Source: an uncultured Candidatus Saccharibacteria bacterium
GTDB taxonomy: Bacteria > Patescibacteriota > CAZHWT01
Assembly (NCBI GenBank): GCA_964554805.1
Contig: CAZKPX010000007.1
Location: forward strand, 314-64,313
DNA: 64,000 nucleotides
Direction of reading: 5' to 3'
The translations under genes and the position numbers were made by a program. The first letter of the stretch is position 1. Each line of letters starts with the position of its first letter. Below the pieces are notes generated by a model. It had not been told where the DNA came from. It saw only the letters and a program-made list of their open reading frames with translations, and searched no databases. This document shows positions 57,884 to 61,162 of the stretch, in pieces.

Positions 57884-58794
57884 TGCAAAAACTCAAACAG
57901 ATCGAACAACAGTTATCCGATGTCGGCCTACTCCAAGAGCTAACATCTACCTTCGAATCAATCGCTGCTCAGAATCTGGCCAATACTCGAGACAAAGTTT
58001 TGTCAGCCAGACAATTTCTCGAAGAAGCGCAGCAAATCTACACTGAAGCCCGCGATATCTTCGTCGCCCAACATAAGCTGACCGAGAAAAAGCTGGAGTA
58101 TCACCAGCAGCTTTCGATTCGTCAAGACAACGGCAAGCATCTGTCGATTGTCATCGCCCCGAACACCAAACTCTATGGCGCCTTGCCTGACCAGCTGCTC
58201 AACTCGGTAGTCGAATCGATTCGCAAAGAGCCGCGCGATGTCTTGGTTTTAGGTAAGGTTGGGGTAGAGCATTTTGCTCGTCTCAAGCCTGCTATCCCAT
58301 ATACAACGCTGGATATTGGCAACGAAGATTACTCCATGGAGCAAGTCCGCGCTATTGTGCAATTTGTATCGCAGTATCGCAAGGTTACGGCCTATTACAA
58401 TCACTTCAGAACAATCCTAACCTCGGAGGTTCTCGAAGCTTCACTCAACCTTACCACAGCCCCGAGTGTCCAAACAGACCAGCCTGCAGAGCCAGAAAAA
58501 CCAGCCAAAGGGCTCAACAAGTTTATTGCCAAGCAAGACGCTCTAGTCGAGCCGTCGCTCGAAGAAGTACTCAACTTCTTCGAGACAGTTATCCTCAAAA
58601 CCATTCTGCAGCAAAAAGTCCGCGAATCGCTGCTATCCCGCTATGCGGCCCGTATGGTTGCCATGGATGTAGCCACCGAGAATGCCAAAGAGGAGTCCAA
58701 GCGATTACTCCAAGCCAGACGTCGAGCCAAGCGAGTTAAAGCCAATCAAAAAATGCTCGATAGCTACTCAGGTTTAAGTTTATGGATGAAATAG
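57883..58794 (+). CDS. atpG: F-type ATP synthase subunit gamma
   Basis: Position between alpha and beta; N- and C-terminal helices typical of gamma (C-terminal ...QKMLDSYSGLSLW-like); 303 aa. Confidence 0.75.
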   Translation: MQKLKQIEQQLSDVGLLQELTSTFESIAAQNLANTRDKVLSARQFLEEAQQIYTEARDIFVAQHKLTEKKLEYHQQLSIRQDNGKHLSIVIAPNTKLYGALPDQLLNSVVESIRKEPRDVLVLGKVGVEHFARLKPAIPYTTLDIGNEDYSMEQVRAIVQFVSQYRKVTAYYNHFRTILTSEVLEASLNLTTAPSVQTDQPAEPEKPAKGLNKFIAKQDALVEPSLEEVLNFFETVILKTILQQKVRESLLSRYAARMVAMDVATENAKEESKRLLQARRRAKRVKANQKMLDSYSGLSLWMK

Positions 58795-58797
58795 GAC

Positions 58798-61092
58798 ATG
58801 GATAAAAAGTTTATGGATGAAATCAACCCAACCACCACCTCGGATACAACCACCCCAAATCTTGCAACGAGCGACGAGCAACAAGCAACAGCACCCCAGC
58901 CAGCAATCGCTGACTCTACCAGTCGCCCGTCGCCCGTCGCAAGTCGCTCCGAAGCCCCCCCGGCTGAGGCAGGTACAGTCCAAAACCCCTCCAACACCGA
59001 CACCTCCAAGTCTCAGGGAACAATCATGTCCATTAGGGGTCAGATTGTTGAGATAGCCTGTCTAGATCAACAACCCAAGCTTCAAGAACTCATGACCAGT
59101 CCCGAAATTCCCAACCTACGCATGGAAGTAATTCGATTTGCTCCAACCGGCAATGTGGTTTGTGTAGCCATGGGAAATCTTAATGGTGTTCGCCGAGGCA
59201 TCAAGGTCGTTGGCACAGGTCAGACCATCGAAGTGCCTGTCGGCGACAACACAAAGGGTCGAATTATGAACCTGTTTGGCGATCCAGTTGATGGTGGGGG
59301 AGAGATTGATCGTGGTCGAACCGTTTCAATATACAAAAACGCTCCGGATTATACCCAAATTAAAACCTCCCTTGAACTGCTCGAAACAGGCATCAAAGTT
59401 ATCGACTTCTTCACCCCATTCGTTAAGGGTGGTAAAACGGGCTTCGTTGGTGGCGCTGGTGTGGGCAAAACGTTCCTTATTACCGAGCTGATGCACAACA
59501 TCTCCAAGTTCCATTCCGGCGTATCAGTCTTCGGCGGTATCGGCGAACGTATTCGTGAAGGCCACGAGCTGTTCGAAAGCCTAGGCGAATCAGGAGTGCT
59601 CAAAGATGTAGCCTTGGTCTTTGGTCAAATGAATGAAAACCCTGCCATTCGTTCTCGTGTTGGCTTGAGCGCTGTCACCTTGGCAGAATATTTCCGCGAT
59701 GAGCAAAAGAAAGACGTGCTGCTATTCATCGATAATGTCTTCCGTCTTATTCAGGCCGGAAATGAAATCTCCACCATGACCAACACCATTCCTTCAGAAG
59801 GTGGATATCAGGCCGAACTGGTTAGCCAGATGGCAGCTTTCCAAGAACGAATTGTCTCAACTGTCGATGGGTCTGTAACGTCGGTGCAGGCTATTTATGT
59901 GCCATCCGATGATGTCACCGATCCGGGTGTGCAGGTTATTTTGCCCTATATGAACTCCATGGTTATCCTGTCTCGAAGCGTAGCCGAGCGCGGCATATAT
60001 CCTGCGGTCGATGTTTTTGAATCCACCTCCTCAGTCCTCACCCCAGAAGTGGTTGGAGACAAGCATTATAATGCCGTGCTATCGGCACAGCTGTTGCTGA
60101 ATAAATATACCGAACTATCCCATATGGTAGCTATTATCGGTGAGGCTGAATTGTCGGCTGAACAAAAGCTGGACTACGGTCGAGCCAAAAAGCTAATTAA
60201 TTATATGTCACAGCCGTTCTTTGTCGCCGAAGCCCAAACCGGCCGACCTGGATATTATGTTGAGCGCGAACAAGCCGTTGACGATGTTCTGGCTATTATA
60301 GCCGGCGAATACGATGAACGAACCGAAGATGAATTTATGAATATTGGAGATCTTAGCACCATCGATACCGCTCACACAGCCAAACCAGCCGGCCATGACA
60401 CACCAAGCGAGACCCCCCCGTCGCCCAGCCAGCCCACCACTAATCTTGCGACGAGCGACGAGCCACAAGCAACAGCACCCCAGCCAGCACCCAACACCTC
60501 ACCCGCAATCGCTGACTCCACCAGTCACCAGTCACCAGTCGCCAGTCGCTCCGAAGCCGCCCCGGCTGAGGCCCCTCCAACCGATCCCTCACCAGCAGCC
60601 TATCAGGTCACTGTGGCCGATGGTACTCCTGACACCAATCAAGCACAAACCACCCTGCTAGATGCGGCTGTGGCCACCAAAATCAGTATGTCCACCACAG
60701 CTCAATCCGGTCCGGACTTGACTTCAACTCCAGCACCCACCCCCAGTCCTGCGACGAGCGACGAGCCACAAGCAGTAGGAGCACAGGCAACAGCACCACA
60801 GGCAGCACCCAACACCTCATCAGCAATCAGTGATCCCCCCAGTCGCCAGTCGCCCGTCGCTAGTCCTCCCCCCGAAGCCGCCTCCCAAGCCAAGCCTCGC
60901 AGTATCCTCCGCTCAGCTCCGGCCCCACAACCGGTCCCAGTTAGCCAAGCAGATCTCGATGATGTCAGCGGCTCAGCCCTAGATGCCTTGGCTGCCGCTC
61001 AAGCAACGACCGACAAGCGACAAGCGACAAGTAAAAATGAAGCCCCATCGCCCGTTGCCAATCCAATAGATGCGACAAAGGAGAATAAGTAA
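58798..61092 (+). CDS. atpD: F-type ATP synthase subunit beta with long low-complexity N- and C-terminal extensions
   Basis: P-loop GGAGVGKT, beta core ([40 protein letters not shown]). 764 aa in frame versus about 470 for typical beta; the extensions contain three copies of a GCGACGRG-type element. The true start could be the internal Met at about 59023 (MSIRGQIV). Confidence 0.85.
58864..58948. repeat. GCGACGRG-type inverted-repeat element, copy B (atpD 5' extension)
   Basis: ACGAGCGACGAGC at 58867-58879 ... CAGTCGCCCGTCGCCCGTCGCAAGTCGC at 58920-58947. Confidence 0.6.
60446..60550. repeat. GCGACGRG-type inverted-repeat element, copy C (atpD 3' extension)
   Basis: GCGACGAGCGACGAGC at 60449-60464 ... 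CAGTCACCAGTCACCAGTCGCCAGTCGC at 60522-60549. Near-duplicate of copy B over about 100 bp. Confidence 0.6.
60748..60866. repeat. GCGACGRG-type inverted-repeat element, copy D (atpD 3' extension)
   Basis: GCGACGAGCGACGAGC at 60751-60766 ... CAGTCGCCAGTCGCCCGTCGCTAGTCC at 60840-60866. Confidence 0.6.
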
Positions 61093-61162
61093 TGCTTCAA
61101 GAGCACAGATCCTCGTCGCCCGTCGCCCGTCGCTCTGATTCTCCAAAGGAGAATAAGTAATG
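61076..61162. repeat. 19-bp direct duplication (CAAAGGAGAATAAGTAATG) flanking a 49-bp insert with a partial GCGACGRG-type end, at the atpD/atpC junction
   Basis: Copies at 61076-61094 and 61144-61162. The insert contains CCTCGTCGCCCGTCGCCCGTCGC and creates a 22-codon mini-ORF ([22 protein letters not shown]) whose stop overlaps the atpC ATG. Confidence 0.7.

Follow-up and report, generated by a model that had tools for sequence, protein, structure and literature searches.

Direct repeats at the atpG/atpD and atpD/atpC junctions of a Saccharibacteria ATP synthase operon: probable local duplications of overlapping stop-start sites

A 64-kb stretch of contig CAZKPX010000007.1 from an uncultured Candidatus Saccharibacteria bacterium (64,000 nt, hereafter the window) contains the distal portion of an F-type ATP synthase operon, as identified from Pfam domains. 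In this operon, the junction of atpG with atpD (junction 1) and that of atpD with atpC (junction 2) each contain a direct repeat around a short spacer. Both repeats are probably lineage-specific local duplications of stop-start junctions at which the genes formerly overlapped. Of this explanation, the duplications, the direction of change and the resulting reading frames are observed; for the mutational route, we infer slippage or template switching rather than transposition.

Layout of the two junctions

The genes and repeat features at the two junctions are as follows.

57883–58794, + strand: atpG (gamma subunit); PF00231, E 4e-27; ends ...YSGLSLWMK, stop TAG 58792–58794
58776–58792, + strand: upstream 17-mer copy of junction 1; last atpG codons and vestigial ancestral atpD start ATG 58782
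58782–58805, + strand: 7-codon mini-ORF MDEIGHG (then stop), opened by the vestigial atpD start; overlaps ATG 58798
58793–58806, + strand: 14-nt spacer of junction 1, AGGACATGGATAAA; ATG 58798 is the first in-frame atpD ATG
58798–61092, + strand: atpD (beta subunit), 764 aa; PF00006, PF02874, PF22919, and alignment to relatives
58807–58823, + strand: downstream 17-mer copy of junction 1; ATG 58813, reading MDEINP...
61076–61095, + strand: upstream 20-mer copy of junction 2; atpD stop TAA 61090–61092, vestigial atpC Shine-Dalgarno sequence and ATG 61092
61092–61160, + strand: 22-codon mini-ORF; its start overlaps the atpD stop (TAATG 61090–61094) and its stop overlaps the atpC start (TAATG 61158–61162)
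61095–61143, + strand: 49-nt spacer of junction 2, counted between the 19-mers; heptamer array (C)GTCGCC, 2.9 copies, at 61112–61133
61144–61163, + strand: downstream 20-mer copy of junction 2; AAGGAG 61146–61151, mini-ORF stop TAA 61158–61160, atpC ATG 61160
61160–61420, + strand: atpC (epsilon subunit), 86 aa; PF02823, E 3e-16

The two repeat pairs reported in an earlier note on this DNA, a 17-mer (AAGTTTATGGATGAAAT) at 58776–58792 and 58807–58823 and a 19-mer (CAAAGGAGAATAAGTAATG) at 61076–61094 and 61144–61162, are real, and each sequence occurs exactly twice in the 64 kb. No third match appeared in the window when up to two mismatches were allowed for the 17-mer (0.01 expected) or up to three for the 19-mer (0.03 expected). 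Identity of the 19-mer runs one base further, giving the 20-mer CAAAGGAGAATAAGTAATGC with its final C at 61095 and 61163. Close-range direct repeats form only about ten families across the 64 kb, most of them tandem arrays, so that two non-tandem repeats placed exactly on consecutive gene junctions are not background. The motifs are thus not the common genome-wide context of ribosome-binding site (RBS) and start codon that the earlier note had considered as an alternative. Both junctions are base-for-base identical in the Logan assemblies of SRR16798008 and SRR16798009, two independent single-run assemblies whose contigs break inside atpD, at its repeats. Each repeat does contain an ATG and an AGGAG that resembles a Shine-Dalgarno sequence, as start regions do. 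Nevertheless, the match counts and the two assemblies rule out chance, an assembly error or a common RBS-start context, and any of these is an extremely improbable source of the repeats; in addition, the sequence of the atpA/atpG junction differs from the repeats.

At junction 1, the C-terminus of AtpG is homologous to the ...SLWMN and ...SLWMK ends of its relatives. The 14-nt spacer, described earlier as an insert holding the atpD start, does contain the first ATG of the 764-aa ORF (58798), which sits 3 nt past the atpG stop. It also contains ATGGATAAA, a degenerate third copy that is one base short of the repeated ATGGATGAAA; we estimate the chance of ATGGAT in a given 14-mer at about 0.002. 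Tandem Repeats Finder (TRF) assigned to this stretch a period of 15 nt with 3.1 copies and 68% matches. The old start ATG 58782, whose upstream AGGA is now AGGT, opens a mini-ORF that stops 7 nt before ATG 58813 and shares its first four codons (MDEI) with the start at 58813. Gene callers disagreed on the atpD start, choosing 58798 and 58813 on two Logan contigs, and the MDEI N-terminus from ATG 58813 agrees with the MDEL and MDEV of relatives. A further internal ATG, placed at 59023 in the earlier note, is actually located at 59026–59028. It is not the atpD start, because GTI before MSIRGQ is conserved in the alignment of AtpD to its relatives, and the N-terminal extension is therefore translated.

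At junction 2, the codon positions agree with the earlier assignment of the atpD stop to the first copy and of the atpC RBS and ATG to the second. AAGGAG lies 8 nt upstream of the atpC ATG 61160, and an identical Shine-Dalgarno sequence lies 8 nt upstream of the vestigial ATG 61092. Translation of 61092–61160 gave the reported 22-codon ORF with its stop on the atpC start (TAATG), and the reported GCGACGRG-type end of the spacer is present on the minus strand as GCGACGGGCGACGAG. The description of a single coupled mini-ORF is correct for this ORF but overlooked the second one, MDEIGHG, at junction 1. The atpD tail and the 22-codon mini-ORF (SSSPVARRSDSPKENK, then stop) align without gaps and in register with 75% identity over 57 of 68 nt, and the remainder matches at 3/16. 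No known RNA family, promoter or terminator was found in either junction.

Single-copy junctions in relatives

The nearest genomes are uncultured Saccharibacteria metagenome-assembled genomes with an atpD core 86% (L001) and 82% (L002) identical to that of the window; in the others the identity is approximately 50% or less. Single-copy versions of both junctions, which the earlier note had proposed to look for, are present among the relatives. For junction 1, the closest relative found is L083 (atpG 93% identical at the amino acid level), with the single copy ...TTAAGTCTATGGATGAACTAA and an atpD (MDELTK...) that begins 13 nt before the atpG end. L084 has the same single-copy overlap, ATGGATGAAGTAA, with an atpD reading MDEVKS.... 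The homologue of the 17-mer in these two relatives is AAGTCTATGGATGAA(C/G)TAA, with the atpD ATG within atpG. For junction 2, single junctions were found in L086 (atpC 87% identical; ...GGAGGCAGTTAGTG), in L087 and L088 (GGAGAATCAGTAATG) and in L089 (GGGCAATAATG), and in all four one atpD stop overlaps the atpC start (TAATG or TAGTG). The remaining operon junctions in the window are also still overlapped (atpH/atpA, ATGA 56213–56216; atpA/atpG, TAATG 57881–57885). Together, the overlapped single copies in relatives and the overlaps retained in the window indicate that the duplicated state is derived and specific to the window's lineage, and not ancestral, as the earlier note had allowed.

At two positions (T at AAGT-T-T and A at GAA-A-T), the two 17-mer copies of the window agree with each other but not with L083 and L084, so the 17-mer was copied after those substitutions. 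The 20-mer differs from the sister junction at about one third of its positions. Both observations argue against a great age of the duplications. Fourfold-degenerate sites differ at 56–58% between the window and the sister; with this divergence, a duplication of intermediate age could have left enough time for neutral flanks to decay.

In the more distant relatives L001, L002, L090, L131, L135 and L136, these junctions contain long spacers rich in heptamer arrays and hairpins. In L001, a 23S_rRNA_IVP gene with inverted repeats on both sides separates atpG from atpD, and L131 has a GIY-YIG gene after atpG. These long spacers and inserted genes point to the atpG/atpD/atpC junctions as recurrent expansion sites in this family. 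The spacers of L001 and L002 are unrelated to the window's and could not be aligned with them. A scan of JGI metagenomes with an atpC profile returned one moderately close locus (L090, 66%), which has a long spacer and is uninformative for polarity. A protein search with the AtpD C-terminal extension, aimed at strains with an unsplit tail, gave no matches, probably because the sequence is of low complexity. In L131, the end of atpG and the sequence immediately following its stop pair as a perfect hairpin (1290–1345; CTTTGGAAAAGCTG / CAGCTTTTCCAAGG). The GIY-YIG endonuclease gene of this contig (1704–2009) is flanked by ATCCTGAA...TTCAGGAT hairpins and is located 3' of atpG, where atpD is expected; the contig ends before atpD.

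Origin of the spacers and route of duplication

In the proposed ancestral state, atpD would have started within the last 13 nt of atpG (ATGGATGAANTAA) and atpC on the atpD stop (TAATG). Extra DNA in such an overlapped junction would destroy one of the genes unless the overlap itself was duplicated. Only overlap-duplicating events survive, and survivors of any mutational route would consequently always look like a spacer between direct repeats. At each junction, the upstream copy still holds the stop of the upstream gene together with the start that the downstream gene once used. At junction 1, the gain of 31 nt would consist of a re-copied 17-mer and 14 nt of filler, the latter a worn copy of ATGGAT(G)AAA, and atpG and atpD would thereby have been separated. 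For the 31-nt model, an additional A-to-C substitution has to be assumed (ATA to ATC, synonymous in atpD). A simple 31-nt tandem duplication was rejected, since the spacer matches neither of its flanks (2–3 of 14 positions) and deletion of the 31 nt leaves atpG without a stop.

For junction 2, two routes agree with the sequence. In the first, a 68-nt unit (21 tail codons and TAATG) would have been duplicated and would later have diverged outside the core. As 68 nt equal 21 codons plus TAATG, an in-frame mini-ORF (M and 21 tail codons) ending on TAATG would arise automatically, and the gap-free, in-register similarity of tail and mini-ORF would also be accounted for. The earlier note spoke of coupling being regenerated; at junction 2, no special selection is needed for this. 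In the second route, a 20-nt copy of the junction would have been placed 48 nt upstream. Either event would set a new stop ahead of the old atpD tail. When 20 nt or 68 nt are deleted, atpD again becomes a single uninterrupted frame that ends on TAATG, and the 20-nt deletion fuses atpD to the mini-ORF frame. The 68-nt route must explain an identity of 20/20 in the core versus at most 61% in the flanks, and the 20-nt route must treat the shared register as coincidence. Insertion of the 19-mer only was rejected, as the resulting frame ends atpD at a TGA 21 nt before atpC with the array read in a frame other than the usual one; with the 20-mer, the frame is restored, and this version was retained as a sub-model. 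Translational bypassing in the style of T4 gene 60 was also rejected, because landing on the second copy meets the same stop codon and changes nothing.

Slipped-strand or template-switch tandem duplication similarly yields local head-to-tail repeats absent from relatives, and is partly matched by the in-register 68-nt period of junction 2 and the 15-nt, 3.1-copy TRF array of junction 1. The present case differs in that perfect identity is confined to the 17-nt and 20-nt cores, the rest of each unit being poorly similar or dissimilar. Each event would therefore include filler, strong later divergence or a short copied patch.

The earlier note interpreted the repeats as target-site-duplication footprints of small insertions. 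According to this explanation, a mobile element inserted into each junction, produced target-site duplications of 17 and 19 nt and was excised imprecisely, leaving scars of 14 and 49 nt. Transposon footprints likewise consist of direct repeats that bracket short extra sequence, here lacking in the single-copy relatives, although any local duplication shares this empty-site feature. The same junctions are also insertion hot spots in relatives (the IVP gene of L001 and the GIY-YIG gene of L131), and repeat-laden long spacers occur there in L002, L090, L135 and L136. However, the 49-nt "scar" can be aligned with the atpD tail that immediately precedes atpC in the sister (TCCTCGTCGCCCGTCGCCCGTCG versus TCCTCGTCACCTGT-GCCCGACG), with 19 of 22 aligned bases identical and one 1-nt gap (shuffle p ~0.002). 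The two sequences have the same position and frame, and SSSPV is read in both (sister AtpD ends ...PSSSPVPDVKKGGS, then stop); this match suggests that the spacer is ancestral atpD tail and not an insert. The 49 nt upstream of the first 20-mer copy showed no such match to the sister tail (p 0.87) and have no template in the window. The 22-codon mini-ORF is best read as the native AtpD tail, which the upstream copy of stop, Shine-Dalgarno sequence and start would have cut off from atpD. The 14-nt piece resembles junction sequence as well, being a near-copy of ATGGATGAAA. Neither spacer has terminal inverted repeats, and no other copy of the 14-nt spacer, or of the 49-nt spacer outside its heptamer array, is present in the 64-kb window. 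The unequal repeat lengths (17 versus 20 nt) argue against a single transposition mechanism, and both are longer than the target-site duplications of most bacterial transposable elements. Considering the lack of element ends, the native sequence within the repeats and their unequal and unusually long lengths, transposition is unlikely.

At both junctions, the start retained in the upstream copy now opens a mini-ORF (7 and 22 codons) that ends at or beside the working start. At junction 2, a ribosome ending atpD at TAA 61090 would sit on ATG 61092, read 22 codons and terminate at TAA 61158, where the atpC ATG 61160 overlaps. At junction 1, a ribosome reading MDEIGHG from ATG 58782 would end 7 nt before ATG 58813, and one completing atpG would stop 3 nt before ATG 58798. 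It is plausible that the mini-ORFs relay ribosomes in this way by termination-reinitiation and keep atpD and atpC translationally coupled. In the systems tested, termination-reinitiation is almost lost at a spacing of approximately 20 nt (Huber et al., 2023, PMC10666635). Under this limit, the 67-nt gap of junction 2 would uncouple atpC if the mini-ORF did not supply its two TAATG overlaps. Coupling by stop-start overlaps (ATGA or TAATG pairs) is known from other systems (Huber et al., 2019, PMC6728339; Huber et al., 2023, PMC10666635), and, as there, the genes here lie on the same strand and encode subunits of a single complex. The ancestral and other operon junctions here have overlaps of -1, -4 or -13, and the 22-codon mini-ORF has TAATG at both ends. 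The difference is that the direct overlap is broken here and the vestigial start opens a short bridging ORF, the putative relay.

Several points weigh against local duplication as the origin of both junctions. The identity profile at junction 2 is abrupt, with 20/20 in the core and then 61% and 19–40% in the flanks. This is not predicted by simple tandem duplication with uniform decay and would require selection on both cores, filler or the copying of a very short patch. For the 14-nt spacer, which resembles neither flank, no template could be identified in the 64-kb window, and no well-spaced Shine-Dalgarno sequence precedes ATG 58798 or ATG 58813 (AGGA is 1 nt and 16 nt upstream, respectively). 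The match of the 49-nt spacer to the sister tail covers only 23 nt and falls within low-complexity heptamer-repeat sequence. For polarity, junction 1 relies on two relatives and junction 2 on four contigs from three distinct relatives, and the relatives found include no strain with an identity between 93% and 100%. The fourfold divergence of 56–58% prevents a base-by-base reconstruction of the ancestral states. Finally, the ribosome relay is a step that we infer purely from the arrangement of starts and stops.

Terminal extensions and neighbouring repeats

The AtpD core spans approximately residues 77–545 and is flanked by low-complexity extensions, a 76-aa N-terminal one and a C-terminal one of approximately 220 aa, which carry 3–4 copies of an inverted heptamer module, (GCGACGA)n...(GTCGCCC)n. 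The modules and the upstream genes of the operon are as follows.

55509–56216: atpH; weak OSCP match (Pfam)
56213–57883: atpA (Pfam)
58850–58971, + strand: module in the N-terminal extension; inverted heptamer arms GCAACGAGCGACGAG ... GTCGCCCGTCGCCCGTCGC; RNA fold z -3.6
60434–60577 and 60737–60882, + strand: two modules in the C-terminal extension
61000–61031, + strand: left heptamer arm CAAGCGA, 4.6 copies, in the atpD tail; complementary to the array at 61112–61133

The first 56 nt of the N-terminal module (58850–58905) are 93% identical to 60434–60489 in the C-terminal extension, and the z-scores of the module hairpins range from -1.7 to -3.6 across copies. A further copy at 56085–56186 in atpH forms a 45-aa C-terminal extension of AtpH that is lacking in the L001 and L002 orthologues, and a partial module is present in a UvrD/AddA-like helicase-nuclease gene (26005–26044). 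The module is always read in one frame, ATSDE...SPVA. Sister species have other arm sequences at equivalent places (L083 1180–1260, L084 1075–1100, L086 180–240).

The duplication at junction 2 might be explained as a by-product of such a module, if a self-propagating hairpin resembling Rickettsia palindromic elements, or half of one, was copied beside the atpD stop. The module does occur in atpH, atpD, the UvrD/AddA-like gene and the junction 2 spacer in a single reading frame, and its atpH copy is missing from the orthologues. The 19-nt arrays at 26012, 58922 and 61115 do not differ in a single base, which points to recent copying, and the spacer array pairs with the left arm in the atpD tail (RNA fold of 61000–61140, z -3.2; 0 of 200 shuffles as stable). 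On the other hand, the junction 1 spacer contains no array, and the array is the only part of the junction 2 spacer common to other copies. The 5' flank of the spacer and the array match the sister tail, which suggests prior presence, and no direct repeats clearly flank the other modules in the 64 kb of genome examined. The 49-nt spacer is no closer to the first 68-nt unit (23/49) than to other module copies (27/49). We regard this origin of junction 2 as rather unlikely. A broader proposal, in which species-specific self-copying hairpin modules of the clade would write themselves in frame onto ATP synthase subunit termini and operon junctions, leaving the duplications as footprints and vestigial copies that were selected as relay mini-ORFs, appears doubtful to a similar degree.

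Rickettsia palindromic elements are reportedly in-frame palindromic repeats inside protein-coding genes (Ogata et al., 2000). The window modules (~100–145 nt, with 42–81 nt between arms) are comparable in their predicted hairpins, their multiple copies and their in-frame translation, and the atpH copy is also missing from orthologues. They differ in having species-specific heptamer arrays as arms, in their location at protein termini and in their use of one frame; they are known here from few copies, and their mobility is hypothetical. The junction repeats themselves are not like these elements.

The AtpD extensions are long and fast-evolving, with total lengths of 764 aa in the window (extensions 58798–59025 and 60430–61092), 737 aa in L001 (5920–8133) and 688 aa in L002 (5884–7950). 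Such extensions are unusual for a cytoplasmic catalytic subunit. Near the AtpD C-terminus, the motif SI[LF][RS][SG]xAPxPxPVxQA is conserved in the window, L086, L087 and L089 (L089 2–649). AtpC consists of the N-terminal beta-sandwich domain alone, without the C-terminal helical domain of full-length bacterial epsilon subunits, and is 83–86 aa long in all clade relatives found. The Ser/Pro run that immediately precedes the TAATG overlap of atpA with atpG is encoded by a hexamer array (TTCTAG/TCCTAG, 9.7 copies) at the 3' end of atpA (57808–57865).

Tandem arrays with a period of 7 nt (or 14 nt) are about 4–5 times commoner across the window than those with neighbouring periods (28 of 54 TRF rows). 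Examples are those at 15646, 41568, 41632, 43045, 43074, 48757, 54560, 61924, 62974 and 63483; the unit differs per array and most are intergenic. Heptamer arrays are also found in relatives, such as CCAGATA (7 copies) in L001 and CTGAACA, GATCGTT, GGAACCT and others in L090, L135 and L131. Either a mutational signature of the whole lineage or a signal may underlie the heptamer periodicity. In Beggiatoaceae, TAACTGA heptamer repeats are reported from intergenic DNA (PMC4679880).

A 23S_rRNA_IVP gene (Pfam) lies downstream of atpC. IVP genes (23S_rRNA_IVP, PF05635, bAvd-like four-helix bundle) are located between inverted repeats at 61499–61870 (within 61421–61935) and 63094–63453 (within 62970–63511) of the window and at 5300–5910 of L001. 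The arms at 62970–63020 and 63461–63511 are 51 nt long and 86% complementary, and the layout resembles rRNA intervening sequences. The cassette follows atpC in the window and L086 and lies between atpG and atpD in L001, and this varying position suggests mobility. Intergenic DNA flanking the UvrD-like gene contains close-range direct repeats (27531–27570 / 27706–27745, 27909–27988 and 23886–23988), which comprise a 33-nt tandem pair, three copies of CAAGGTCCGACCTT and a 40-nt repeat 175 nt apart with the palindrome CGAACCCGG..CGGGT.

The junction duplications are a tidy and fairly ordinary case of local duplication, an instance of known processes and not a new mechanism or system. They provide a natural example of overlapping coupled genes being pulled apart, in which the overlap would have been duplicated, one copy left to each gene, and the leftover start turned into a bridging ORF. 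For annotation, they place the atpD start at 58798 or 58813 and not at 59026, and add two unannotated mini-ORFs. The surrounding terminal extensions of the F1 subunits in this clade, which are fast-evolving, hairpin-forming and made of heptamer repeats, are odder than the junctions and may matter more.

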